Positions 1 to 13,081 of a DNA stretch of 13,081 nt are shown in pieces (positions within the stretch are counted from its first letter, which is position 1; every line of letters starts with the position of its first letter). The notes beneath the pieces are model-generated. The model saw nothing but the letters and a program-made list of their open reading frames with translations, was not told the DNA's origin and searched no databases. The translations under genes and the position numbers were made by a program. This stretch comes from Candidatus Aenigmatarchaeota archaeon (GTDB taxonomy: Archaea > Aenigmatarchaeota > Aenigmatarchaeia > QMZP01): contig JBDRSV010000014.1 of the NCBI GenBank assembly GCA_043824495.1, positions 1 through 13,081 on the forward strand, written 5' to 3'.

Positions 1-1662
1 GTAAAAACAACTACAGATTCCAATGGTTTGACCAGCTGGATATGGTTAAAGGAATACAACCAAACAGGCAACGGGACTTATGTAACAGGGTGTACAGGAT
101 CTACAGGACGCATAAATTGCACAACTCCTCACAACGTGACAGTATCTCATGCAAGCTATAATGGAAATTCGTCTAACTATACAGTTGATGTAAGTCAAAC
201 AAATCACTTAATGCTCAACATAACTATTGTAGTAATTACTTGTTCCCCTCCAGTATCAAGTGATTGGAATGTATCGACATCTTGTATAATTACTAGTGAT
301 GTTTTGTATGTTGCAGAAGATCAAGATCTAAATGTTCTAGATGGTGGATCCTTAACACTAGTGAATACTACTCTGTGGATGAATTCAACTGCAAATGGAA
401 CATCTGAAATTCATATTTTCTTTGGAGGAGAATTAAAAATAAATGATAGTTCTAATTCCGGAACTATGATTAATTCAACCAACCCAAATAACCATTTCGG
501 GTTTGTTGTAGATAATGGAACCAACTTTTCTATGATAAATTCTCAACTAGAAAACGCAGGCTGGGCTGATGTAGTAGGTCAGAGAGGTTTAGAAATTAAT
601 ACAAGCATAGGAGAGTTCTACGGAAACTTGATAAAAGATAATTATTTTGGTTTAGTCTTAATGAAAGATAATAATGTACTTTCTAATAACACTCTAGACA
701 ACAACATATACAATGTTTACGTTCTTAATGGAACTGGAAACATTTTCTGGGATAACACTCTAAGTAATGGAGTTACAGATGTGCGTATAGGAAGTATAGG
801 AAACACAACATTCTTGAATACAAGTTTTGATAAAGCAGAGATTTTTGATTCCGGTTCAGGAGCTTCTTTAGATGTTCAGTGGTATTTCAAGGTTGTTGTA
901 CAGAATATTTTGGAAAAAGGACTCAAAGACGCCAATGTAAGTTTGACAAATACATCATCAAATATAGTATTTCATGAACTGACAAATCATTTAGGAGAGA
1001 CCACTCTAAGAAACATAACAGAATATGTATCAACATCTTCAGGACAAACGAATACAAATAATCATACTCTTAATACAACAAAATTGACAGAAATGGACAT
1101 AAGACAATTAAACATAACAGGAAATAATGTTGTTAACATTGTACTGGATTTATTCAGAGATTTTCAAATTGTATTGAACATAAACAATACAAATGCTTTA
1201 GTTTACGTGCCTGGTACAGGTGTTTTAAACTCAAATGATTTAGGAACTGGTTTGAATTATACAAATCATACAAGATCTTACGTAGCGTCATATAGCGGAG
1301 ATGTTCTAACAGGACTTGTTGCTTCTTCAGTAGAGAAATTAACAGCAAGTAATACAGCAGGCTATCATAGCATAGGTATACAGAGAAACATGACTCATAC
1401 AAAAATATTATTGCCTTTCACAAGAGGTGACTGGGGAGGAATTGAAAATAGAATGAATTTAATAGAGTCAGGGGACTTCTTTTTAGAAATAACACCTACA
1501 TTTGGCTTTGGTTTGGGACTCAAATATCCTATAAAACTCTTACTAAAATATTCTGATGTAAACATACAGAATGATTTAATATTAAATAAGGGAATCCATA
1601 AGCTAGCCATAGAAAGTAATAAAAGTGGAACAAAAGCTATAACAATAATAAGGCAGGAGTAA
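1..1662 (+). CDS. Large secreted/surface glycoprotein, 5'-truncated; parallel beta-helix (NosD/PbH1-like) segment plus repeated beta-rich modules
   Basis: Frame 1 is open from base 1 (VKTTTDSNGLTSWIW...), so the TTG at 28 is not the true start. About 30 N-X-S/T sequons. Asn-ladder repeats (GNLIKDNYFGLVL..NNVLSNNTLDNNIYNVYVLNGTGNIFWDNTL) are typical of right-handed beta-helices. Stop TAA 1660-1662. Confidence 0.75.
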   Translation, partial: VKTTTDSNGLTSWIWLKEYNQTGNGTYVTGCTGSTGRINCTTPHNVTVSHASYNGNSSNYTVDVSQTNHLMLNITIVVITCSPPVSSDWNVSTSCIITSDVLYVAEDQDLNVLDGGSLTLVNTTLWMNSTANGTSEIHIFFGGELKINDSSNSGTMINSTNPNNHFGFVVDNGTNFSMINSQLENAGWADVVGQRGLEINTSIGEFYGNLIKDNYFGLVLMKDNNVLSNNTLDNNIYNVYVLNGTGNIFWDNTLSNGVTDVRIGSIGNTTFLNTSFDKAEIFDSGSGASLDVQWYFKVVVQNILEKGLKDANVSLTNTSSNIVFHELTNHLGETTLRNITEYVSTSSGQTNTNNHTLNTTKLTEMDIRQLNITGNNVVNIVLDLFRDFQIVLNINNTNALVYVPGTGVLNSNDLGTGLNYTNHTRSYVASYSGDVLTGLVASSVEKLTASNTAGYHSIGIQRNMTHTKILLPFTRGDWGGIENRMNLIESGDFFLEITPTFGFGLGLKYPIKLLLKYSDVNIQNDLILNKGIHKLAIESNKSGTKAITIIRQE

Positions 1663-1663
1663 T

Positions 1664-2086
1664 ATGAAAATATTAGTAGGCGGAACTTTTAATATAGTGC
1701 ACCCAGGTCATGTATTCTTTTTAGAGAAAGCTAAATCCCTAGGAGATTATTTAGTTGTCGTAATAGCCAATGATAAGACTGTTTTGAAATCAAAGAAGTT
1801 TCTTCTTTTCAGTGCAGAAGAACGAAAGAAAATGATAGAGAGTTTGAAGTGTGTTGATAAAGTTGTGATAGGACAAGAAAGTGACTTCTTCAAGATTGTG
1901 GAGAAAGAAAAACCAGATATAGTAGCTCTAGGTCATGATCAAACAATGGAAGAGGAATGGATATTAGAGAGAGCAGAAAAAATGGGAATGAAAATCAAGA
2001 TTATCAGAATTAAAGATAAGGTTGATGGTTACAATACAACAGAGATCATGAAGAAGATATCGAAATTAATGAATGGGGAAAATTAA
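1664..2086 (+). CDS. ribL: FAD synthase (archaeal RibL, cytidylyltransferase family)
   Basis: N-terminal GGTFNIVHPGH (HxGH motif), VIAND, ERKKMIESLKCVDKV and KPDIVALGHDQ motifs; 140 aa; GGAG RBS upstream; starts 1 nt after the previous stop. Confidence 0.85.
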   Translation: MKILVGGTFNIVHPGHVFFLEKAKSLGDYLVVVIANDKTVLKSKKFLLFSAEERKKMIESLKCVDKVVIGQESDFFKIVEKEKPDIVALGHDQTMEEEWILERAEKMGMKIKIIRIKDKVDGYNTTEIMKKISKLMNGEN

Positions 2087-2092
2087 TTCCCC
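2075..2092. terminator. Hairpin between convergent genes, possible bidirectional terminator
   Basis: GGGGAA-AATTAA-TTCCCC: 6-bp stem, 6-nt loop, overlapping the ribL stop and 8 nt from the stop of the convergent small ORF. Confidence 0.45.
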
Positions 2093-2099
2093 GAAAATA

Positions 2100-2171
2100 T
2101 TAAAACATATCACTTTCTTCCTCTTCGAAACCCTCTTCTTCACTTTCGTCTTCCTCTTCGACAAATAACAT
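2100..2171 (-). CDS. 23-aa hyperacidic micropeptide MLFVEEEDESEEEGFEEEESDMF
   Basis: ATG at 2171, TAA at 2102-2100; AGGAGGT Shine-Dalgarno at 2183-2177, 5 nt upstream; BRE/TATA-like GAAAAC-TTTAAA at 2228-2217. Confidence 0.65.
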   Translation of the reverse strand: MLFVEEEDESEEEGFEEEESDMF

Positions 2172-2216
2172 AAAATACCTCCTGGAAGCAACTAGTTATT
2201 AATAAGCACACACACA

Positions 2217-2228
2217 TTTAAAGTTTTC
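2217..2228 (-). promoter_or_regulatory. BRE-TATA promoter candidate for the acidic micropeptide
   Basis: Minus strand reads GAAAACTTTAAA, matching the archaeal BRE+TATA layout; predicted TSS near 2192, just upstream of the RBS. Confidence 0.5.
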
Positions 2229-2246
2229 TATTATGTACTGTTCCTT

Positions 2247-2720
2247 TTAAAAGAATTTCCGTAAAAGGATGGTTTTTCTGCCAGATTCCCCGAACTTTTC
2301 ATCTATATACTCCTTCAATGGAACTAACCCAATATTCTCGCTCAATTTTATCATAGCCCTATTTTCAGGCCATGTTGTAGAATAAATACCTCTTAGTTCT
2401 AGTTTCTTCATATCGTCTATGCACATCTTGGCCAATTTGGTTCCTATACCTTTTTTTCTATAATCTGGGTGAACTCCTATGATAGAAATGTATCCATAAT
2501 TATTTTCATATAATCTCCAAGAAACAAATCCAATAATATTTTCCTTTAATAAAACACCAAATGATATTTCTTTACCCTTCTTTATTCCTCGAATCTCTTT
2601 ACTTATTTCACTTTCGGATAAAGGTGGTACATAGTCGTTCTCTAATAAAAATAGGAATTTTTCAATATTATTCGAATCCTTTTTTGTCAATTTCTTGAAT
2701 ACAAAGTTCATATCACACAC
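2247..2720 (-). CDS. GNAT-family N-acetyltransferase (RimI-like)
   Basis: Acetyl-CoA motif A VHPDYRKKGIGTKL and motif B TWPENRAMIKLSENIGL. True start may be the ATG at 2711 rather than the GTG at 2720. Confidence 0.85.
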   Translation of the reverse strand: MCDMNFVFKKLTKKDSNNIEKFLFLLENDYVPPLSESEISKEIRGIKKGKEISFGVLLKENIIGFVSWRLYENNYGYISIIGVHPDYRKKGIGTKLAKMCIDDMKKLELRGIYSTTWPENRAMIKLSENIGLVPLKEYIDEKFGESGRKTILLRKFF

Positions 2721-3561
2721 TTATACATTCACAGAATTGGTTATTTGCAACAGAACACAGGCTGTTATCTGCTGTTATTCCTAGTATAACATTTGTCCCC
2801 TGATAGTTAACTCTATACGTTTGGAGTACAGCACCTCCACTATTTGTTTCCATTAGAGTCGATGCTTGTGGATCATCAAATTCCTCAGCTAACATGTTTA
2901 AACCAAACTCACTTGATAACTGTGCCATACTAGGACATCCTGCTGGTAAGTCACCTCCGCTTATGGTTTCTATTTCATCAGCTAGAGTGCTTAACTCCTC
3001 TGCTGTTATCCCTAAATCAGCTAAAGGATCTGGGAATCCCTGGAAAGTAACTGCAGCAAAAAGTAAGAAACCAACAAGTATAACAACACCAATTATGCTT
3101 ACTGGGGTTAGTTTTTGTTTTCCTTGGATACTTGCAGCTTTTTTCAGTGTTGCTTGTAAGCTAGCAATCTTATTCTTGATACCCTGGATGTTATACACAT
3201 GAATACTTATCATGTATACACAAGCTAGTAAAATGAAAGCCGCTATAAGACCGCCCATGAAAACATTGATCTGGAATGTTTTGTATATACCTTCATTCAA
3301 GAAGGGTAAGAATTCTGACAAAGAAATGCCTGCTATTAATGCAGCGAAACCGAGTCCAATCCTAAATATGAAATGAAAAAATATATTTGTGTAGCCTCTG
3401 TATCCTTTCACTGCTATAGAACCAAGGAATAATATGAGAAATATATAACCGACTACGAAAGCCACAAAAAACATTGTAGGAAGTTCTCGCAGAAGATCTG
3501 GCATGAAGCTCAATATGCCTGTTAAATCAGTAAGCGCCATACTATGTATTTGTGTGAGCAC
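2713..3561 (-). CDS. Polytopic membrane protein with C-terminal Cys-containing extracytoplasmic domain
   Basis: About 4 hydrophobic helices in the N-terminal two-thirds, then an acidic domain ending CSVANNQFCECISV. Likely start is ATG 3540 (or 3504). Confidence 0.7.
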   Translation of the reverse strand: MLTQIHSMALTDLTGILSFMPDLLRELPTMFFVAFVVGYIFLILFLGSIAVKGYRGYTNIFFHFIFRIGLGFAALIAGISLSEFLPFLNEGIYKTFQINVFMGGLIAAFILLACVYMISIHVYNIQGIKNKIASLQATLKKAASIQGKQKLTPVSIIGVVILVGFLLFAAVTFQGFPDPLADLGITAEELSTLADEIETISGGDLPAGCPSMAQLSSEFGLNMLAEEFDDPQASTLMETNSGGAVLQTYRVNYQGTNVILGITADNSLCSVANNQFCECISV

Positions 3562-3562
3562 G

Positions 3563-3577
3563 TTAAAAAGTATTAAG
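3563..3577. promoter_or_regulatory. Shared divergent TATA region (thrC / membrane protein)
   Basis: TTAAAAAGTATTAAG: AAAAAG-TATTAA lies ~24 nt before the thrC ATG (3600); on the minus strand TTTTTAA lies ~23 nt before ATG 3540. Confidence 0.4.
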
Positions 3578-3599
3578 CAATCAAACCTAACAAAATGTT

Positions 3600-4784
3600 A
3601 TGTATGAAAAATTTCTTTTGTGTTCTAAATGTGATACTAAATACAAACTAAAAGAGCTAGTTTTTAGATGCAGAGAATGTGGTGGATCTCTGGAAGTTAT
3701 TTATGATTACACAAAACTGAAGAAAATAATTAGTTTGAAAATTCTCCAAAAACGACCTTTCAATCATGCAAGGTACAAAGAGTTCTTTCCTGTGAAAAAT
3801 CTGGTCAGTATACAAGAGGGAGGAACTCCGCTAATAAGATCACATAATATAGAGAAAGAATTTGGATTGAAATTCGAATTATATTTCAAGAATGAAGCTG
3901 TTAATCCAACAGGATCTTTCAAAGATAGAGGTTCAACAGTGGAACTTGCAAAGGCTATAGAATTTGGTAAGAAACACGTGGCTTGTGCATCTACTGGAAA
4001 CATGGGAGCTTCTGTAGCTGCTTATTCGGGAATAGCTAGAAAAAAATGTAGAGTGATAGTCCCAAAAGATGCAGCACATGTGAAAATAGAACAAATTCTA
4101 GGATACGGTGCAGACGTGTATCAAATTAATGGGGATTATAATGATGCAGCAGATCTGGTTGAATATGCATTCAGAAAGCACGGAGCTTACTTACTAGGTG
4201 ATTATTTGTATAGAAGAGAAGGAACAAAATCAGTTGGCTTCGAGCTGGCAGAACAAATAAATGCAGATTATGTGGTTTGTCCTGTAGGCAATGGTACTCT
4301 CATATCAGCTGTATGGAAAGCCTATAAGGAATTCAAAGAGCTCGGATTCATAGAATCAACACCAAAAATAGTGGCTATACAAGCTGAAAAATGTAATCCT
4401 GTGACAAAGGCTTTCAGATCAGGGGAAGCAATAATTCCTGTTTCTGGGAAAACAATAGCAGTGGCAATGGAGTGTGGAAATCCTCTTGATGGGGATAGAG
4501 CTCTAAAAGCAGTACACGAGTCTACTGGTTATGCTGATCATGTGTCTGATAAAGAGATCCTAAATTCTAGGAATACATTAGCAAAGACAGAAGGATTATT
4601 CGCAGAGCCTGCTGGTGCTGCTTCTCTAGCAGGAATATTAGCAGGCAAAACCAAGATCAAGAGAGGCAGTAAAGTCGTTTGCCTAGTCACTGGTCATGGA
4701 TTGAAAACTCCAAAAACAGGTACAAGAGGTGTGCTCAAACCTATAGGCATGACAAGAAAAAGTGTAGATGCTCTATTTTCTTAA
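3600..4784 (+). CDS. thrC: Threonine synthase (PLP-dependent, fold type II)
   Basis: N-terminal CxxC...CxxC, EGGTPL, NPTGSFKDR (PLP lysine), ASTGN, PVGNGT, EPAGAASLAG and VTGHGLK motifs. Confidence 0.9.
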   Translation: MYEKFLLCSKCDTKYKLKELVFRCRECGGSLEVIYDYTKLKKIISLKILQKRPFNHARYKEFFPVKNLVSIQEGGTPLIRSHNIEKEFGLKFELYFKNEAVNPTGSFKDRGSTVELAKAIEFGKKHVACASTGNMGASVAAYSGIARKKCRVIVPKDAAHVKIEQILGYGADVYQINGDYNDAADLVEYAFRKHGAYLLGDYLYRREGTKSVGFELAEQINADYVVCPVGNGTLISAVWKAYKEFKELGFIESTPKIVAIQAEKCNPVTKAFRSGEAIIPVSGKTIAVAMECGNPLDGDRALKAVHESTGYADHVSDKEILNSRNTLAKTEGLFAEPAGAASLAGILAGKTKIKRGSKVVCLVTGHGLKTPKTGTRGVLKPIGMTRKSVDALFS

Positions 4785-4800
4785 ATTCTCTCTTTAGGAG

Positions 4801-4824
4801 AGCTTTATAAGCTTTATATATATA
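4801..4824 (+). promoter_or_regulatory. rps15 promoter region with tandem AGCTTTATA repeat
   Basis: AGCTTTATA-AGCTTTATA-TATATA upstream of an AGGTGA RBS (4851-4856) and ATG 4860. Confidence 0.45.
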
Positions 4825-4859
4825 GATTAAACCAATTAACTGAGTATAAAAGGTGAACT

Positions 4860-5315
4860 ATGTCAAGAATGTATTCAAGAAAAAAGGGAAAATCTGGCTC
4901 AACAAAACCATTGAAAAAAGAAGCCCCTTGGGTGAAATATAAACCTAAGGAAATTGAAGATATTGTGGCTAAACTCGCAAAAAAAGGCTACACATCATCC
5001 AAAATAGGCCTAGTCATGAGAGACGAGTATGGTATTCCTAGTGTGAGTACGGTTTCTAAGGGAACCAAAGTAGCAAAAATTATGAAAGACCACAAAATAT
5101 ACCCAAAAATGCCTGAGGATATGTTAAGTCTGCTAAAGAAAGCAGTGAATCTTAATGGTCATATGGAAAAGAACAAGAAGGATTACACGTCCAAAAGAGG
5201 ATTGGAAATTACAGAATCGAAGATAAGGAGACTTGCTAAATATTATAAGTCTAAGGGTGAAATGGAAAAGACTTGGAAATACGACCCTATGGCAGCAAAA
5301 CTTCTAGTAAAATAG
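4860..5315 (+). CDS. rps15: 30S ribosomal protein S15 (uS15, archaeal S13e type)
   Basis: MSRMYSRKKGKSGS N-terminus, IGLVMRDEYGIP, PEDMLSLLKKAV, KRGLEITESKIRRLAKYYK; AGGTGA RBS. Confidence 0.97.
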   Translation: MSRMYSRKKGKSGSTKPLKKEAPWVKYKPKEIEDIVAKLAKKGYTSSKIGLVMRDEYGIPSVSTVSKGTKVAKIMKDHKIYPKMPEDMLSLLKKAVNLNGHMEKNKKDYTSKRGLEITESKIRRLAKYYKSKGEMEKTWKYDPMAAKLLVK

Positions 5316-5340
5316 TTTATTTTTATACAGGTGTTTTTTT

Positions 5341-7521
5341 ATGGCAAAAGATCTCGCTGAAACAGTAAAGAATTTGATGACACAACCTAAACAAATAAGA
5401 AATATGGGTATAGTTGCGCATATAGATCATGGTAAGACTACATTATCAGATAATCTTTTAGCTGGTGCAGGTATGATTTCTGATGAACATGCAGGACAAC
5501 AACTAGCTATGGATTTTGTAGCTCAAGAACAAGAAAGAGGAATCACAATTTACGCTGCTAATGTTTCTATGGTTCATGATTACAACAATCAAGAATATCT
5601 TATTAACATGATTGATACTCCAGGTCACGTAGATTTTGGTGGAGATGTTACCAGAGCAATGAGAGCTGTGGATGGAGTTATAATTGTGGCTGATGCTGTT
5701 GAGGGTGTGATGCCACAGACAGAAACAGTTATCAGACAGGCTCTAAAAGAAAGAGTTCAACCAGTTCTATTCATCAACAAAACAGATAGATTACTCAAAG
5801 AATTAGAACTTACACCAGAACAAATGCAAGAAAAATTCAAGAGTATAATCACAGAAGTTAACATGCTTATCAACAAGTACGGAGAAAAACAATACAAAGA
5901 TAAATGGCTAGTTAATGTGGATGATGGGTCTGTTGCTTTTGGTTCAGCAACCAAAAAGTGGGCAGTATCTGTTCCTTTAATGAAACAATCTGGAATGACA
6001 TTCAAAGAGGTCATTGAAATGACAGCGAAGGGAGAAGAAAAGGAGCTAGCAAAGAAAGCTCCTCTAACTGAAGTGATCCTTAACATGGTTATTGAACATC
6101 TTCCAAATCCTTTGGAAGCTCAAGCTTACAGGATTCCTCATCTATGGGCTGGAGACCTTGATTCTGAAGCAGGAAAAAGTATGCTTAATTGTGATCCTAA
6201 TGGACCTTTGGCTGCTATAGTTACAAAAATTTATCCCGATCCACATGCAGGCTATGTCTCGACTGTGAGAATTTTCTCAGGAAAGATAGAAAAAGGCCAA
6301 GTAGTTTATTTGGTAGGAAAAGAAAAAATGGAAAAAACCCAACAAGTTTCTATTTACAAAGGCGCACAAAGACTTGCGATGGATGAAGTTTATGCGGGTA
6401 ATATTGTAGGAATTGTTGGTTTGAAAGATGCTTTCTCAGGAGAAACACTTACAACAGTAGATAATCCAATAGAAGGATTCGAATCTATTACTCATATGTT
6501 CGAACCAGTTGTTACAAGAGCAATTGAGCCAAAACAGCCTCAACAATTATCTAAACTTATAGAGTTCTTGAAAAGAACAAGTAGAGAAGATCCTACTCTT
6601 AGAGTTAAAATTAATGAAGAAACAGGAGAATATCTTGTTTCAGGTCTAGGAGAATTACATATTAATGCTAAAATAGAAATTCCAATAAAAGAAGCAGAAA
6701 TTGATGTTGATATTTCTCCACCAATTGTTATCTACAGAGAGTCCATCAAAGATAAAACTCCAGCAGCAGTAGAAGCTAAATCACCAAATAAACACAATAG
6801 ATTCTTCATACTCGCGGAAGCCTTACCAAAAGACGTTTATAATGCAATGGTTAGAGGGGAAGTTCCAGATCAAGAAGTTAAGAAAAAGAATTTAGAGTTA
6901 CAAAATCAACTTGTTGAACTTGGAATGGAGAGAGAAGAGGTAAAAAAGATAAAAGAAATCTACAATAAGAATGTTTTACTTGATACAACACGGGGTGTTG
7001 GTGCTATATTAGAAATCATGGAAATGATTAAGCAGGCTTTCAGAGAAGCAATGAATGAAGGTCCACTAGCTAGGGAACCATGTTCTGGTATGAAAATCAT
7101 GCTTGTTGATGCAAAACTTCACGAAGATGCAATTCATAGAGGACCAGCTCAAGTTATTCCAGCTACAAGAAATGGTATCAGAGATGCTATACTTGGAGCA
7201 AAACCATACATGCTTGAACCAAAGCAGGTAATTAGAATTGATGTTCCTACAGCACAAATCAGCGGGGCAACAAAAGAAGTCCAAAACAGAAGAGGACAAA
7301 TTCTTGAAATGGGAGAGGAAAGAGGAGCAAGCATAATCAAAACAAAGGTTCCTGTAGCTGAGATGTTTGGATTCAATTCAGCTCTTAAATCCTCAACAGG
7401 TGGTCAAGGATTCTTCTGGTTAATTGATATTGTTTATGAACCAATACCAAAAGATCTTGAACCAAAAGTCATAAAACAAATCAAAGAGAGAAAGGGAATT
7501 TCTGACACAGTAGAAGAATGA
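5341..7521 (+). CDS. fusA: Translation elongation factor EF-2
   Basis: AHIDHGKTT, ERGITI, DTPGHVDF and NKTD GTPase motifs; diphthamide loop HEDAIHRGPAQVIP; 726 aa; CAGGTG RBS. Confidence 0.98.
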   Translation: MAKDLAETVKNLMTQPKQIRNMGIVAHIDHGKTTLSDNLLAGAGMISDEHAGQQLAMDFVAQEQERGITIYAANVSMVHDYNNQEYLINMIDTPGHVDFGGDVTRAMRAVDGVIIVADAVEGVMPQTETVIRQALKERVQPVLFINKTDRLLKELELTPEQMQEKFKSIITEVNMLINKYGEKQYKDKWLVNVDDGSVAFGSATKKWAVSVPLMKQSGMTFKEVIEMTAKGEEKELAKKAPLTEVILNMVIEHLPNPLEAQAYRIPHLWAGDLDSEAGKSMLNCDPNGPLAAIVTKIYPDPHAGYVSTVRIFSGKIEKGQVVYLVGKEKMEKTQQVSIYKGAQRLAMDEVYAGNIVGIVGLKDAFSGETLTTVDNPIEGFESITHMFEPVVTRAIEPKQPQQLSKLIEFLKRTSREDPTLRVKINEETGEYLVSGLGELHINAKIEIPIKEAEIDVDISPPIVIYRESIKDKTPAAVEAKSPNKHNRFFILAEALPKDVYNAMVRGEVPDQEVKKKNLELQNQLVELGMEREEVKKIKEIYNKNVLLDTTRGVGAILEIMEMIKQAFREAMNEGPLAREPCSGMKIMLVDAKLHEDAIHRGPAQVIPATRNGIRDAILGAKPYMLEPKQVIRIDVPTAQISGATKEVQNRRGQILEMGEERGASIIKTKVPVAEMFGFNSALKSSTGGQGFFWLIDIVYEPIPKDLEPKVIKQIKERKGISDTVEE

Positions 7522-7638
7522 ATTTAAAATTTCTTAACTAATTCTTGGTTCTAGAAAAGAATAATATAAAATCGAGTATAGGTAAGTATTATTCTAAACA
7601 TGATGTCTAAATAAATCTCTAAAACTAAATAATCAATT

Positions 7639-8199
7639 ATGAATCTGAAAAAGATGGAAAAACATAATCCGCAAATGTGGAAAACTCTAATTTTCTTTTC
7701 TAGATTAGTTGTGTTATCTATACCAGTTTATCTTGTGATAACATTGGGTGTAGATTTAATTGTTCTCCAAAACACAGTTGCAGATAATTCTTATCTCATG
7801 TTTAAATATACTGGTTTTGCTGTTGCAAAAGAAGGTCCAGCTCTTACAGTTGGATTGGATGATGAAACTAGACAACCTTTCTATTTCATAATATCAGAAG
7901 ATTCTACTGGATGGAAATCTTTGTTATTTTTCGGAGCTCTACTCCTAGCAGTCCCAGAAATACACAATAGAAAAAGAATGTGGGGATTGATAATAGGATT
8001 ACCTGTAATATGGATAGGGAATTTGGTTCGCATATATGTAATAGTTATGGTGGAAAGGTCATATGGTTTCCAAGCAGCTGCGATAACACATGACTACTTA
8101 TGGCAAGTTGGTTTGATGATTTTAGTTTTAGCAACGTGGCTTTTGTGGTATGCAAAAGTTACAGAAAAATTCCAGAAGAAATCTGAGTTGAGAATTTAA
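7639..8199 (+). CDS. Archaeosortase/exosortase-family membrane protein, with Ser at the usual catalytic Cys position
   Basis: Short sortase topology with IISEDSTGW (Cys motif position), GNLVRI (N128/R131) and ITHD (H151) between TM helices. Confidence 0.75.
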   Translation: MNLKKMEKHNPQMWKTLIFFSRLVVLSIPVYLVITLGVDLIVLQNTVADNSYLMFKYTGFAVAKEGPALTVGLDDETRQPFYFIISEDSTGWKSLLFFGALLLAVPEIHNRKRMWGLIIGLPVIWIGNLVRIYVIVMVERSYGFQAAAITHDYLWQVGLMILVLATWLLWYAKVTEKFQKKSELRI

Positions 8200-8267
8200 A
8201 ACATTTTTCATTTTTCGCCTTTGAGAGTCACCTATATATCCGAGAAAACAAATAATCAAAGAGTATT

Positions 8268-8942
8268 ATGAATGTTGATTGGGTCATAACAATGGGATTG
8301 TTTATAGGATTTGTTGTATGGGCTCTTAGTTTTTACAGTTCTTTCTTTACAGGAGTTGCAGACATTTCATCATTTGCAGATATAACAAACGGAAGAATAC
8401 TAGAAAATCTAACAATAGATAGTTACGAAGTTCCTATAAGATACAATTCATCTAATATGACTTCTAATACTGTTTTACATTTTGATTTTGTGTGGCCGGA
8501 AGATACACAAAACACAACTAAAATTTTCTCCGGAACAACGGAAATCACATGTTCAATTTTAAATAATGTGATATATTTCGAAACAGATTTAACTAATCTT
8601 ACTTACAATTATTTCAAAATGACGTTTAGTAAGAAGAATGTGACAGCAAACTGTGCCAATTTTGCACCTGCACACAATAGAACGCAGATAGTTCCATGGG
8701 CAATGCAGAAGAAGAGCCTAATCTCCCAGAGTATCATAAACATGATGACGAATCTTACTTATGCTGATTATAAATCACAGTTGGGAATAACACGAGATTT
8801 TAGAATAGAGATAAACGAAAGTGGAACAGAAACTAATTATGGTTTACCTTTACCAAATAATAGAAATGTGTATTCAAGAGAAACAACAACACGATTAGAA
8901 GAAACCAATTCTGAAGTTGATATAACAGTTATGGTATGGTAA
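8268..8942 (+). CDS. Membrane-anchored secreted glycoprotein, possibly pilin/type IV filament-associated
   Basis: Single N-terminal hydrophobic helix (VDWVITMGLFIGFVVWALSFY), ~9 N-glycosylation sequons, C-terminal beta strand ending in W. In-frame stop just upstream confirms the ATG start. Confidence 0.6.
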   Translation: MNVDWVITMGLFIGFVVWALSFYSSFFTGVADISSFADITNGRILENLTIDSYEVPIRYNSSNMTSNTVLHFDFVWPEDTQNTTKIFSGTTEITCSILNNVIYFETDLTNLTYNYFKMTFSKKNVTANCANFAPAHNRTQIVPWAMQKKSLISQSIINMMTNLTYADYKSQLGITRDFRIEINESGTETNYGLPLPNNRNVYSRETTTRLEETNSEVDITVMVW

Positions 8943-8978
8943 TGGGCACATGGGGATTCGAACCCCAATTACAGCCTG
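8943..8978 (-). tRNA. Orphan tRNA 3' half (positions ~38-73), isotype undetermined
   Basis: Minus strand C-AGGCT-GTAAT-TGGGG-TTCGAAT-CCCCA-TGTGCCC-A: perfect T-arm, 5-nt variable loop, acceptor 3' strand and A73. No matching D-arm or anticodon 5' strand in the adjacent 30 nt. Confidence 0.7.
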
Positions 8979-9008
8979 TTTACAATCTCTGCTTATGTTG
9001 AGGGGTGA

Positions 9009-9081
9009 TAGGCGAGCCGGGACTTGAACCCGGGTCTCGACCTCCGCAGGGTCAAATTCTATCCAACTAAACTACTCGCCT
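9009..9081 (-). tRNA. tRNA-Arg(GCG), intronless, CCA not encoded
   Basis: AGGCGAG TA GTTT AGTTGGATA GAAT T TGACC CTGCGGA GGTCG AGAC CCGGG TTCAAGT CCCGG CTCGCCT A: full cloverleaf, anticodon GCG, G37, A20 (Arg identity element), A1-U72. Confidence 0.95.
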
Positions 9082-10168
9082 TTTTTAGTTTTTCCATTTT
9101 ACTTGGATTACTCGAGTTTATCTCTTTTATCCATTTATTAAGCAATGTCGGCCCGTTTAGGGAGATTGTCCATTTATATACGGTTGGGATAAAGCCAAGT
9201 TTCTTGAGCATGCTCGTTGTTTGATCGATAAGTTTTTTTGATTTTATACTTATAGTGATTATGGGGTATCTTTTTTTTCTCATATAAATACAGCCGTCCG
9301 TGTCAAAAAGCCCACGTATAAACGAACAATACACTTCTTTATTTTTTGTTTTGAGTATTGATTCTGGGACTTCGGTTCTTTCGACTTTGTTTCCATAAGG
9401 AAGGCCTATGATTTTGTTTTTAAATTCTCCTAGCGCTTTGGAATAAATTTCAAATCCAGTAACACTTGGTAATTTCATGATTTTAAGGTCTATATTATAT
9501 AATTTCTTATAGAGCGCGACTAAATATTCTGTTACATATTCTTCTTCTTTTTTGTTACATTTAACGGAAAAATAGTGCCTGCTTTTTGATAAACACCCGT
9601 CGCCTAAATGTATACCAATTTCTTCTGCAAGTTCTTTGGACATTCTTTTTGGAAAAATCATACCCTTTCTTTTATCTGCCCATGTAAATTTTATTTTTTT
9701 ACTATTGAAAAAAACCTTGTTGTTTGTGAAGAAAGGGGTGTTTTCCTTTTCTAATTCTCGAATCTTAAGATCCCTTTTCTTTAATTTACCATCTATGGTC
9801 ATTTTAATTAAGTCTGTTCTGTATTTTTCCCATAGATTAAATAAAGCTTTTTTCCGATCTGGTCTCTTTCTTCCTTTATTTTTCTTACCGCCGATTTTGC
9901 CGCCCTTTACACATCCCCAATTATCTCTCTTCTCGTCTAATATCCGAATTTCTAATTTCTTTGGAATTATGTGACCCGGAATATACCTCTCCCCATATTT
10001 CCATGTCTTAAGAGTTCTTATAGGTATTTTCATTTTATGGGAAAGATCCTTTAGATTTTTGGCCCCATGATGATCTTTCAAAAAATCAAAAACTTTCTCT
10101 CTTGATTCATTATTCAATAAAAATCTCATAATTAATAATTGGTCACTCATGTTAATAATACTATCCAT
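9059..10168 (-). mobile_element. Free-standing LAGLIDADG (DOD-type) homing endonuclease with N-terminal HTH
   Basis: Motif 1 LAEEIGIHLGDGCL and motif 2 FIRGLFDTDGCI, both with acidic catalytic residues; N-terminal HTH-like LKDLSHKMKIPIRTLKTWKYGERYIP; very basic; no intein splicing termini. Alternative starts at 10150 or 10129. Confidence 0.85.
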
Positions 10169-10182
10169 TATACTATAGGCCC
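10158..10182 (-). tRNA. Orphan tRNA 5' fragment (positions 1-25)
   Basis: GGGCCTA TA GTAT AATGGATA GTAT: acceptor 5' strand, U8-A9, 4-bp D-stem (G.U, U-A, A-U, U.G), A14, G18G19, A21. The sequence after it forms no anticodon arm. Confidence 0.55.
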
Positions 10183-11079
10183 TTAAACTAAAGCTCCAAT
10201 TATGAATGCAAGCAATCCTATGAACATCCCAATTTTTATTTTTTTACTTAATTTAGAATAATCTTTCTTTTTCTTCGCTTTTGGTATTCTGTATATTATA
10301 TACAGGAAAAGAATGTCAGTGATCCATACAATTCCAATGTAGCTCAAACCAACTAATCCAATCAAATACGGAACAGGAGAAACCAATATTGCTCCGACCA
10401 ATGCTATTTGGGCAGTTGATTTAGCTTTTCTTTCACTGTATTTAAGTTTAGTTCCATCTCTTGTAATTTTGAATCTCTCTGCAAGTTTATCCTTAACTTT
10501 TGAAGATGCTCTTTTTAAGAAACTTTTTGTGTCTCCTTCCAAATCTTCCAAATCTTTTACAATCTCTCTGGCAACGTTTGCTAACATTGCAAGAACGAAA
10601 AATATGAAAGGTAGAGTCATATTACCCATTGCAGCTCCACCAAACAAGAATGTAGATCCGACTAAGTAACTCACTGCGAGATTCCCTAAAAGAGTTTTGT
10701 TTTGCAGAGAACGTGCATAGATGATTAACAGGAATGAATTAAATGCAGCTATAATAAGTGGGTAAATTGTATTTAGAGTTAGAGCTAGAGTTATTCCAAT
10801 AAGGAATAATATTATAGAAAACCATAATCCAGCAGATTTTGAAATTCTATCTGTTGCTAGTGGTCTATTTCTTCTATTTGCTTTATCAGAATCTATGTCA
10901 TAATAATCGTTTATTACATTACCAGCACCTGTGATCAAAAAAGCAGCAATCATAGCTATGTAAATAGGAGTAGTTGTAACCAGTAATGTAATATCAGAAA
11001 CAAGTAATCCACCAATAAAAACAGCAAATATACTCATAACACAATTTACCGGTCTCAGTAATTTGATATAATCTAACAT
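10183..11079 (-). CDS. UbiA-family prenyltransferase, likely digeranylgeranylglyceryl phosphate (DGGGP) synthase
   Basis: LLRPVNC N-terminus, first Asp-rich motif NDYYDIDSDKANRRNRPL, LGNLAVSYL, second motif REIVKDLEDLEGD; multiple TM helices. Confidence 0.85.
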   Translation of the reverse strand: MLDYIKLLRPVNCVMSIFAVFIGGLLVSDITLLVTTTPIYIAMIAAFLITGAGNVINDYYDIDSDKANRRNRPLATDRISKSAGLWFSIILFLIGITLALTLNTIYPLIIAAFNSFLLIIYARSLQNKTLLGNLAVSYLVGSTFLFGGAAMGNMTLPFIFFVLAMLANVAREIVKDLEDLEGDTKSFLKRASSKVKDKLAERFKITRDGTKLKYSERKAKSTAQIALVGAILVSPVPYLIGLVGLSYIGIVWITDILFLYIIYRIPKAKKKKDYSKLSKKIKIGMFIGLLAFIIGALV

Positions 11080-11082
11080 GCC

Positions 11083-11490
11083 TTACACCTTACTCACAGG
11101 ATGTCTTGCTCCACATGCTTCACATTTTAAGAAATAAAATTTGTCCTCTTTGGTTATTTTTGTGTCAGGTTTTTTGCACTCAGTGCATATCACATAAGAT
11201 TTCATATACAAATCAATTTTCTTATTCACAAGAGAAGTGGAAAATGTTCCAATTAATATTAAACTCTGACTAGATAGTTCCCAAGAAGTTGCTAGTTCTT
11301 TCGCTAGGAATTTTATCAAATGTTTTTGATCTCTTCTCAAAGCATTTGCTATCTCTATAATATTTTTAATTAAAGTTTTACTACCTTGAATTAAGACTAT
11401 CGGTTTAGGTACTTCAAACCTGTCTGTTGTTTCAACTTTATCAGGCACTTTCTTCATCCCCTCTTTTAGTAGCTCTTCATAGCTTTTCAT
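11083..11490 (-). CDS. eif2b: Translation initiation factor aIF-2 subunit beta
   Basis: RFEVPKP, GSKTLIKN, HLIKFLAKELAT, zinc ribbon CTEC...CEACGA; GTGAT RBS. Confidence 0.95.
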   Translation of the reverse strand: MKSYEELLKEGMKKVPDKVETTDRFEVPKPIVLIQGSKTLIKNIIEIANALRRDQKHLIKFLAKELATSWELSSQSLILIGTFSTSLVNKKIDLYMKSYVICTECKKPDTKITKEDKFYFLKCEACGARHPVSKV

Positions 11491-11588
11491 ACTATCACAT
11501 AGTTAGTTGATACTTATTAATGGTTAGTTAATCAGGACTTGGAATAGATATATAAATATTCATATCATATTAGAATAATAGTGGTTAT

Positions 11589-12719
11589 ATGACTGATTTT
11601 GATCAATATGGACCTGAAAAAATAGTAGAAATTCATGATCCTAAAACAGGAGCGCACGGTTTCACAGTTGTAGATAATACAGCATTAGGACCTGCAAAGG
11701 GTGGAATCAGAATGACTCCTACAGTTTCTATAGAGGAAGTTTCTAGATTAGCAAGAGCAATGACATGGAAATGTGCAATAGCAGATCTTCCTTTTGGTGG
11801 AGGTAAATCTGGTATAGTAACAAATCCAAGAGAAATAAGTCCAGAGAAAAAGCAAGATATTGTTGCAGCTTTCTCAAGAGGATTGAAAATAATTTCACCA
11901 GAACTCTATGTAGCAGCTCCTGACATGAACATGGCAGAAGAAGAAATGAGAACATTTGCAAATGCAAATGGATCTCTTAAATCGTGTACAGGAAAACCAG
12001 CTAATATGTGCGAAAAGGATGGGACTGGATGTGGTCTACCACATGAGCTTGGATCAACAGGATTCGGAGTATTTCATTCTATTGTTGTTGCAGCTAAACA
12101 CATCGGATTGAACCTAAATGGTGCAACTTTCTCAATTGAAGGATTCGGAAATGTAGGAACCTTCGCTGCTAAGTTCTTAGAAGAACTTGGAGCAAAAATG
12201 GTTGCAGTATCAGATTCCAAAGGATGTGTATACAACCCAAAAGGAATAGATGTCGCAAAAGCATTGAAAGTTAAACAAGAAACAAGATCAGTTTCCAATT
12301 ACGAAGACGGAAACAAGCATGATACCGGTGATATTTTTAGTTTAGAAGTAGATATAATTGTGCCTGCCGCACTTCCAGATGTAATCAACAAACAAAATTA
12401 TGAAAGTGTGAAGGCAAAAATAGTAGCAGAAGGAGCAAACATCCCAATGAAACATTGGATAGAAGAAGAATTTCATCAAAAGGGAATTCTTATAATTCCT
12501 GATATAGTTGCAAATGCAGGTGGTGTGATCTCTTCATATGCAGAGTATATAGGAAAAGATAAAGATTACATGTTCAAGCTTGTAGAAGAGAAAATAACAA
12601 AAAACACACAAATAGTTCTAGACCATGCAAAGAGTGAAAAAATTTCTCCAAGAAAAGCCGCAATGGAGATAGCAGAAAAAAGAGTTACAGAAGCAATGAA
12701 GAAAAAAGGAATGATGTAA
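11589..12719 (+). CDS. gdhA: Glutamate dehydrogenase (Glu/Leu/Phe/Val dehydrogenase family), compact form
   Basis: GPAKGGIR, MTWK, GGGKSG, APDMN, GFGNVG (dinucleotide binding), EGANIP and PDIVANAGGVISSY motifs. Confidence 0.9.
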   Translation: MTDFDQYGPEKIVEIHDPKTGAHGFTVVDNTALGPAKGGIRMTPTVSIEEVSRLARAMTWKCAIADLPFGGGKSGIVTNPREISPEKKQDIVAAFSRGLKIISPELYVAAPDMNMAEEEMRTFANANGSLKSCTGKPANMCEKDGTGCGLPHELGSTGFGVFHSIVVAAKHIGLNLNGATFSIEGFGNVGTFAAKFLEELGAKMVAVSDSKGCVYNPKGIDVAKALKVKQETRSVSNYEDGNKHDTGDIFSLEVDIIVPAALPDVINKQNYESVKAKIVAEGANIPMKHWIEEEFHQKGILIIPDIVANAGGVISSYAEYIGKDKDYMFKLVEEKITKNTQIVLDHAKSEKISPRKAAMEIAEKRVTEAMKKKGMM

Positions 12720-12801
12720 TTACTGGTTCATATTAGGCCATTTTCTTTGAATTAGATGAAGTATTATTCCTAGTAATATGGATATAATTAACCATCCAAT
12801 A

Positions 12802-13081
12802 TCACTTCAAAAACTGATCTACTTTATCCCTTGCTTTCTCTCTTTGATCTTGATGTTTTTCTAAGAATTTTGTCATTTTCTCAATTAGAATCTGTTTAAG
12901 CTCGCCTGTCAAGAGCTTTCCAGATTTGTACTCATCATGTATTTTTTTTATCTTCTTATCATCTTCTTCGAACATGAAATATAACATCTGATAAGAAATA
13001 TCCACATCAGGATTTCCGCCCTTTTCTCTATGTTCTTTAACGGTCTCTCTTCCTCCAGAAAATGCGTGTTTATTTATTTTT
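12802..13081 (-). CDS. trpS: Tryptophanyl-tRNA synthetase, C-terminal fragment (gene continues beyond window end)
   Basis: Frame is open to the window edge: KINKHAFSGGRETVKEHREKGGNPDVDISYQML...YKSGKLLTGELKQILI, the archaeal/eukaryotic TrpRS anticodon-binding domain. Confidence 0.95.
   Translation of the reverse strand, partial: KINKHAFSGGRETVKEHREKGGNPDVDISYQMLYFMFEEDDKKIKKIHDEYKSGKLLTGELKQILIEKMTKFLEKHQDQREKARDKVDQFLK

Follow-up and report, generated by a model that had tools for sequence, protein, structure and literature searches.

A LAGLIDADG endonuclease gene and a complete tRNA-Arg(GCG) lodged inside a broken tRNA-Arg(GCG) gene of an Aenigmatarchaeota archaeon: a probable mobile cassette

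Split tRNAs are known from Nanoarchaeum equitans and a tri-split tRNA-Gly from Caldivirga maquilingensis, and LAGLIDADG genes occur in the introns of archaeal rRNA genes. What, then, is to be made of a locus in which two ends of a tRNA gene enclose both a LAGLIDADG gene and another, complete tRNA? This arrangement is found on the minus strand of a 13,081-nt stretch of DNA from a Candidatus Aenigmatarchaeota archaeon (assembly GCA_043824495.1, contig JBDRSV010000014.1, positions 1 to 13,081), which is referred to as the window throughout. A first-pass annotation of the window had set out three models, namely pieces of a split or tri-split tRNA, a giant intron that carries a protein gene and a tRNA, and an endonuclease-plus-tRNA cassette that invaded a tRNA gene and brought a replacement with it. 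The analysis presented here favors the third. It is highly likely that a mobile cassette consisting of a promoter-like stretch, the LAGLIDADG gene and a foreign tRNA-Arg(GCG) invaded the resident single-copy tRNA-Arg(GCG), and that the stubs left on either side, positions 1-25 and 38-73, are non-functional.

The broken gene and its intact counterpart in a sister genome

The locus was compared with the corresponding site of a genome of the same genus (G001), in which the locus L119 lies on contig C87. The parts of the window locus are given below in minus-strand order.

10183..11079, minus strand: ubiA-family prenyltransferase gene, left flank of the site (Pfam UbiA, E = 4e-34)
10158..10182, minus strand: remnant of the resident tRNA-Arg(GCG), positions 1-25, i.e. 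acceptor 5' strand and D-arm (21/25 identical to L119:116-140 of G001)
10130..10157, minus strand: left cassette end, a 28-nt AT-rich, TATA-like stretch and putative promoter (motif conserved in related loci)
9059..10129, minus strand: LAGLIDADG endonuclease open reading frame (ORF) of 356 aa, stop codon within the inner tRNA (Pfam LAGLIDADG_3, E = 1.3e-12)
9009..9081, minus strand: cassette-borne complete tRNA-Arg(GCG) (ARAGORN and Rfam, 59.8 bits)
8978..9008, minus strand: 31-nt spacer, right end of the inserted DNA (homologous neither to the G001 gene nor to any spacer of other cassettes)
8943..8977, minus strand: remnant of the resident tRNA-Arg(GCG), positions 38-73, i.e. anticodon-stem 3' strand, variable loop, T-arm, acceptor 3' strand and A73 (29/35 identical to the G001 gene)
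8268..8942, plus strand: convergent ORF, right flank of the site (no Pfam family; homologous to DNA beside the tRNA in G001)

The nested order of the four main parts (fragment 1-25, LAGLIDADG ORF, complete tRNA-Arg(GCG), fragment 38-73), as first described from the letters of the window, was confirmed by ARAGORN, Rfam and a covariance model built from 26 tRNA-Arg(GCG) genes. At E <= 10 the model returned exactly three matches in the window. The inner tRNA scored 88.9 bits, followed by the 3' piece with 19.5 bits (E ~1e-3) and the 5' piece with 9.4 bits (E ~0.5). By its score the 5' piece is marginal, and it is the 21 of 25 identities with the intact gene of the sister genome that argue for its being real.

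That intact gene is what reveals the nature of the outer pieces. Between the end of ubiA and the convergent ORF, the interval in G001, a relative without the endonuclease there, holds a 25-nt spacer followed by an intact and intron-less tRNA-Arg(GCG) (L119:116-187), which bears out the earlier guess that the broken gene was one for tRNA-Arg. The stubs of the window are identical to this gene at 50 of 60 positions (83%) as against 38 of 60 (63%) with the inner tRNA of the window itself. In the window, positions 26-37 of the tRNA are absent and 1180 nt (10157-8978) stand in their place. Judged from sequence comparison, the outer pieces are thus the resident tRNA-Arg(GCG) with its positions 26-37 replaced by a 1180-nt cassette, and neither a split tRNA nor the exons of a giant intron. 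A filled site in the host assembly (G000; 1.01 Mb, 80% complete) and an empty site in G001 are therewith present within one genus, the presence/absence pattern of a homing element. The gene is also found directly downstream of ubiA in relatives of the same family and order, on either strand and often with odd introns.

Several such resident genes downstream of ubiA carry non-canonical inserts (loci L005, L002, L023 and L029 in genomes G014, G008, G035 and G009, respectively). The insert of L005 measures ~33 nt and lies in the D-arm near positions 22/23, that of L002 comprises 12 nt within the T-loop, and in L023 the D-loop and the T-loop are each interrupted by one. These insert-bearing tRNA-Arg(GCG) genes are missed or mislabelled by ARAGORN.

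The homology also settles the boundaries. The 5' piece spans 10182-10158 as first reported; the 3' piece had been started at 8978 with a 30-nt spacer before it, and here the homology begins from A38 at 8977 and leaves a spacer of 31 nt. A canonical T-arm (8951-8967) is followed in the 3' piece by a 7-nt acceptor strand and then A73. The acceptor strands of the outer pieces (GGGCCTA/TGTGCCC) pair at six of seven positions with one G.U pair and one C-U mismatch, in agreement with the first description. Both pieces abut the stop codons of the flanking genes: that of ubiA occupies 10183-10185 and the 5' piece begins at the adjacent base 10182, while 8942 is the final stop-codon base of the convergent ORF and the 3' piece ends at 8943. 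On the 3' side this is due to tight gene packing (the gap in the sister genome is 1 nt), and on the 5' side to the loss in the window of the 25-nt upstream spacer, which is kept in G001 along with its TATA-like element.

How recent the insertion is can be gauged from the stubs. Their 83% identity with the G001 gene compares with 64-69% for the flanking coding DNA, and four of the ten stub differences are compensatory changes in the T-stem, which therefore arose while the gene still worked. Within the 3' piece, no difference from G001 is seen in the acceptor 3' strand or the variable loop, and the T-stem differs by two such compensatory pair changes. Taken together, the conservation of the stubs and the compensatory changes indicate that the insertion postdates the greater part of the divergence of the two species. 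Sequence divergence thus suggests an endonuclease lineage that is old and diverse (nearest relative ~60% identical) and an insertion in the window that is young. The intact D- and T-arms, read by the first-pass annotation as favoring function over decay, find their explanation in this fairly recent insertion after the split of the sister species. Signs of decay can be seen in the C5-U68 acceptor mismatch, which is derived since G001 has A5-U68, and in the lost upstream promoter spacer.

Acceptor pairing is broken by the two bases at positions 5-6 of the 5' stub (window 10178-10177), which read CT in place of the AC of G001, and CT agrees with the stub consensus of other cassettes. Partial co-conversion of the 5' arm by a donor, rather than random decay, would be in keeping with this. 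To look for population polymorphism, metagenome contigs were scanned for the 3' stub by exact or degenerate pattern, and no match was obtained.

The cassette, its endonuclease and related loci

Typical features of a functional tRNA-Arg are displayed by the inner gene. ARAGORN and Rfam each call a single complete tRNA-Arg(GCG) at 9009-9081 on the minus strand (Rfam 59.8 bits against a cut-off of 29), with a full cloverleaf, the anticodon GCG and A20 in the D-loop, as expected of a tRNA-Arg. It is the top genome-wide match of the covariance model and the sole tRNA-Arg(GCG) found in the 80% complete host assembly. The gene is fused to the endonuclease ORF in an unusual manner, the final 23 nt of the ORF being the first 23 nt of the tRNA and the TAG stop sitting in the D-loop. 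Compared with its counterparts in other cassettes, the inner tRNA shows 74-85% identity, and compared with resident genes of the host's order 61-70%; it shares with the inner tRNAs of its relatives an unusual acceptor stem (RGGCGAG/CTCGCCY). Its identity with the G001 gene amounts to 67% as compared with 83% for the stubs, so that divergence from the relative's gene is greater for the imported copy than for the native part that it displaced.

The A-rich block GGTTCAAATAAYCCAAAAAA lies inside the endonuclease ORF, 17-37 nt upstream of the inner tRNA (window 9098-9118, minus strand). It holds the codons for GSNNPKN, is conserved at the DNA level and occupies the same place in L034-L054. The block could be an embedded promoter for the inner tRNA.

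Only ~25 tRNAs are detectable in the 1.0-Mb host assembly, and many of the host tRNA genes are probably multi-intron or fragmented. Orphan sequences that resemble a T-arm and acceptor, together with a partial tRNA match, are found outside the called tRNAs of G000 at C1:20437-20453, C5:52179-52195 and C10:37519-37581; the second of these resembles the 3' part of a tRNA-Ser(GGA) located 2.6 kb upstream.

With regard to the endonuclease, more than 100 full-length homologues were found. The homologues place its start at ATG 10129 (MRFLL..., 356 aa), clear of the 5' piece; the upstream ATG at 10168, with which the ORF would overlap that piece, is not its start. All 35 family-invariant residues are retained, including both LAGLIDADG motif aspartates, and these two (D177 and D278) are invariant in 42 homologues. 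The AlphaFold model has a predicted local distance difference test (pLDDT) score of 90, and its C-terminal ~200 aa match monomeric endonucleases of archaea as well as the endonuclease domains of inteins (I-Tsp061I, I-DmoI, PI-PfuI and TliVMA). Its two motifs and its predicted alpha-beta-beta-alpha-beta-beta-alpha repeat fold place the protein among the putative monomeric double-motif LAGLIDADG homing endonucleases. The N-terminal ~150 aa form a further domain, which is conserved across the family.

Three more LAGLIDADG-domain sequences are present in G000, at C5 (~6.9-7.4 kb), C3:13192-13965 and C15:34351-35409. One of the three is an intein within a 1214-aa MCM-like ORF, the second a 257-aa free-standing ORF beside the tRNA-Ala of an apparent rRNA operon, and the third a 352-aa ORF with a C-terminal helix-turn-helix-like tail.

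The distribution of the endonuclease is patchy in the relatives of the host. Out of 90 other genomes in the order, only two have a homologue at E <= 1e-30, and out of 46 in the family none does; the two copies from the order are 38-44% identical to that of the window. The nearest relatives (50-60% identity along the entire protein) belong to records that carry the labels Woesearchaeota, Nanoarchaeota or Pacearchaeota. The host itself is an archaeon with aIF2-beta and aEF2, and its EF-2 is closest to proteins labelled Aenigmatarchaeota. From these sequence affinities, the cassette looks foreign to its Aenigmatarchaeota-type host. No donor was identified; the loci of the closest homologues have the same design with another stub type (GCCCC... 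acceptor). Nor did a viral vector emerge: a viral contig collection gave only distant LAGLIDADG cores (<=33% identity) and no relatives of the cassette.

In one genome of the host's order (G055), locus L036, which is the same as L056, has an endonuclease of 38% identity directly before a tRNA-Arg(GCG) with a GGGCC-type acceptor. The site is not beside ubiA, and an inverted fragment resembling a tRNA 3' end lies upstream of the endonuclease.

The nested design recurs in related loci. Among the first 27 loci of close relatives, the ORF runs into a tRNA-Arg(GCG) in 20 according to ARAGORN alone, and a same-strand tRNA was called by ARAGORN at the ORF end in at least 50 of 80 loci, a lower bound because intron-bearing tRNAs are missed by this program. 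The layout was counted in 18 non-redundant loci of the closest subfamily, where 5' stubs were located by local alignment to a consensus, the covariance model being too insensitive there although it recovered the T-arms of 3' stubs. A 5' stub is present in 15 of these 18 loci and ends at a fixed distance of 30-33 nt upstream of the ATG, with a conserved TATA-box-like motif in between; in the window the TATA-like stretch lies ~25-30 nt upstream of the ORF start. A 3' stub with T-arm and acceptor follows shortly downstream of the inner tRNA in 13 of the 18, and 11 stub pairs show full 7/7 acceptor pairing. One locus, L046, has kept the entire outer anticodon arm, which is degenerate or gone in others, and this indicates an ancestral insertion point at ~25/26.

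The stubs of the related loci have a GCCCC-type acceptor stem and those of the window a GGGC-type one. As the latter type is found in the genus and family to which the host belongs, the stubs are derived from the host and the cargo from the cassette.

Other isoacceptors are occupied by more distant subfamilies. At tRNA-Arg(CCU) both stubs are present, the 3' stub beginning in the anticodon loop, and at tRNA-His there is a 5' stub only, which from sequence suggests a minimal cassette carrying merely a new 5' end. Two loci of this tRNA-His subfamily, L065 and L070 (the latter from a Micrarchaeota record), have the 5' stub upstream of the ORF, and the stub of L070 repeats without change the first 25 nt of the downstream tRNA-His. 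In L084:1948-2696 (CP070803.1, Woesearchaeota), a tRNA-Tyr(GUA) is broken after ~position 31 by 675 nt with a related LAGLIDADG ORF. This insert has no replacement tRNA, and the locus is a genuine tRNA intron that bears an endonuclease, or else a dead gene.

Proposed mechanism and competing explanations

Under the cassette model, the endonuclease would cut intact tRNA-Arg(GCG) genes in or near the region of the D-stem and anticodon arm. The break would be repaired from a cassette-bearing donor, the tRNA ends serving as homology where they match and end-joining being used elsewhere. The variant tRNA of the cassette would escape cutting and take over the decoding of CGY codons, and it is proposed that insertion into an essential gene is tolerated for this reason. 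The element would accordingly act as a natural 'home-and-rescue' element. That the enzyme cleaves, where it does so, that the inner tRNA is immune, which promoter is used and by which route the cassette was transferred are all steps that we infer.

A candidate determinant of immunity adjoins the insertion point. In alignment A4, all six resident genes sampled from the order have C-G at the 27:43 pair, a combination that does not occur there in any of the 15 inner tRNAs of the closest subfamily. As the residents and the inner tRNAs compared come from different lineages, this is no more than a lead. Transcription may start from the TATA-like stretch before the ORF or from the A-rich block 17-37 nt before the inner tRNA. 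We also considered an 'addiction', in which the tRNA depends on the promoter of the endonuclease; it is not separable from a possible promoter embedded in the last 40 nt of the ORF.

Four observations weigh against this interpretation. A second tRNA-Arg(GCG) may lie in the part of the host genome outside the 80% complete assembly. There is no close donor, the nearest endonuclease being only ~60% identical. The anticodon arm of the inner tRNA resembles the resident type and consistently differs at the 27:43 pair only, so that immunity is not obvious from the alignment. Lastly, identity across the related loci is 0.77-0.79 for the stubs, 0.71 for the inner tRNA and 0.43 for four-fold codon sites, the endonuclease genes being saturated at silent positions; stubs about as conserved as a functional tRNA could point to a function of the stubs rather than to their repeated renewal.

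This last point leads to the variant in which the stubs are under selection, as homology arms for homing, as an operator or as a tRNA-like clamp, and which appears doubtful to us. As an operator, a stub may be the half-site that the endonuclease binds beside its own promoter; as a clamp, the anticodon-less tRNA-like fold may direct processing of the cassette transcript by RNase P and tRNase Z. If stubs were indeed selected, the split and fragmented tRNA genes of DPANN archaea would have a direct source in cassettes of this kind. The sequence conservation of stubs elsewhere may result from renewal out of the host gene at each fresh invasion.

A second possibility, which we consider unlikely, is that the LAGLIDADG protein has been domesticated as a vertically kept partner of the tRNA, for instance a regulator or an RNA chaperone, and that the insertion took place by illegitimate recombination. 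Copies that are only 50-60% identical to each other suggest long residence, the conserved N-terminal domain of ~150 aa has no known function, and the ORF and tRNA are physically welded. A domesticated partner is difficult to reconcile, however, with the patchy distribution, with an empty and a filled site within one genus and with the invariance of both catalytic-motif aspartates. Moreover, the broken tRNA gene that encloses a subfamily is in each case the one cognate to that subfamily, as is predicted by target-specific homing.

Could the 1180-nt interval be a giant intron, of the archaeal bulge-helix-bulge (BHB) or the group I type, that carries the endonuclease and a tRNA within a functional outer tRNA? 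Precedents for its components exist, in that LAGLIDADG genes are known from archaeal rRNA introns, relatives of the host have BHB-type introns in the D-arm and T-loop of tRNA-Arg(GCG), and the outer gene of L046 is complete save for the insert. In the window, however, positions 26-37 are gone from the exons and no anticodon could be formed by splicing; cofolding of both junction regions gave no BHB motif, and the sister gene is intron-less. A search of 8700-10400 against Rfam at E <= 10 found no group I or other intron family, only the inner tRNA and noise. The archaeal group I introns published so far are, furthermore, all in rRNA genes (PMC6125680). The intron model of the first-pass annotation is hence very improbable.

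Least credible of all is a split or tri-split tRNA whose anticodon piece is encoded elsewhere, the splicing endonuclease joining the parts in trans: pairing of the acceptor strands extends to 6/7 positions, the D- and T-arms are intact and the genome is rich in odd intron-laden tRNAs with only ~25 tRNAs detectable, but the gene runs uninterrupted in the sister genome, a genome-wide scan of the 80% complete assembly for a stem-pairing anticodon-arm piece (26-37) gave only chance-like matches besides the inner tRNA, the GCG anticodon is already supplied by that inner tRNA, the acceptor mismatch is derived, the 5' piece is without its upstream spacer, and most related loci have a degenerate outer anticodon arm or none at all.

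The cassette model is thus the one of the three original proposals that is supported, by the empty site in G001 and by the identity of the stubs to the gene there (83%) as against the inner tRNA (63%).

Relation to known systems and significance

The closest known analogues of the cassette are the mobile endonuclease ORFs (mORFs) known from fungal mitochondria and SegB of phage T4. The mORFs, described in Allomyces macrogynus atp6 and in Glomus atp6, atp9, cox2 and nad3, import a foreign gene end and displace the native one (PMC3630166). As in the window, the LAGLIDADG (or GIY-YIG) gene of an mORF is free-standing and brings with it foreign sequence that duplicates part of the gene it enters, and the displaced native part is closer to the gene of a relative than the imported copy is (83% vs 63% here). 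They differ in that mORFs hit protein genes of mitochondria, whereas a tRNA gene of an archaeal chromosome is affected here; in that the cargo of the window is a whole gene, hence the stubs on both sides; and in that the endonuclease ORF of the window overlaps the start of its cargo and takes its stop codon from it.

T4 SegB is a free-standing GIY-YIG homing endonuclease of a tRNA gene cluster, which recognises tRNA-gene sequence and drives the co-inheritance of neighbouring tRNA genes (PMC2330249). Recognition of a tRNA gene, which we infer for the window, and homing without an intron are common to both. SegB belongs to another nuclease family and to a phage rather than a cell, and it sits between genes, whereas the window cassette is nested in a broken gene; an architecture of replacement and stubs is undescribed for SegB.

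Two further systems share single traits with the window. The endonucleases I-DmoI, I-Tsp061I and I-PorI of archaeal rRNA BHB introns have the same monomeric double-motif fold, with TM-scores of 0.62-0.70 normalised to the target, and likewise archaeal hosts. Unlike the window protein, they lack its extra conserved N-terminal domain of ~150 aa, and they need RNA splicing to keep the host gene working, in place of which the window has no intron and would rely on rescue by a spare gene. Split and tri-split tRNAs resemble the outer pieces in their breaks at ~25/26 and 37/38 and in their complementary acceptor strands. Their parts are joined via complementary leaders, whereas here the middle piece is missing, the remaining pieces stand in cis around an insert and a sister genome of the host has the gene unbroken. 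A full-text literature search returned no description of endonuclease-plus-tRNA cassettes in archaeal tRNA genes, which is no proof of absence.

Overall, we present a clean pair of filled and empty sites in one genus for a homing endonuclease that colonises an essential single-copy tRNA gene without recourse to an intron or intein. The cassette brings along a spare and presumably cut-resistant tRNA and would be a natural counterpart of engineered 'home-and-rescue' gene drives. The locus implies that the tRNA allele of one DPANN lineage can give way to an allele like those of another, in this instance a Woesearchaeota-type allele in an Aenigmatarchaeota-type host. The endonuclease family is large, with 488 relatives among species-representative genomes, and is tied to specific isoacceptors, and its members are natural enzymes that probably read tRNA-gene sequences. 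For DPANN genomes, such cassettes provide a concrete origin of orphan tRNA halves, which could otherwise be mistaken for split tRNAs.

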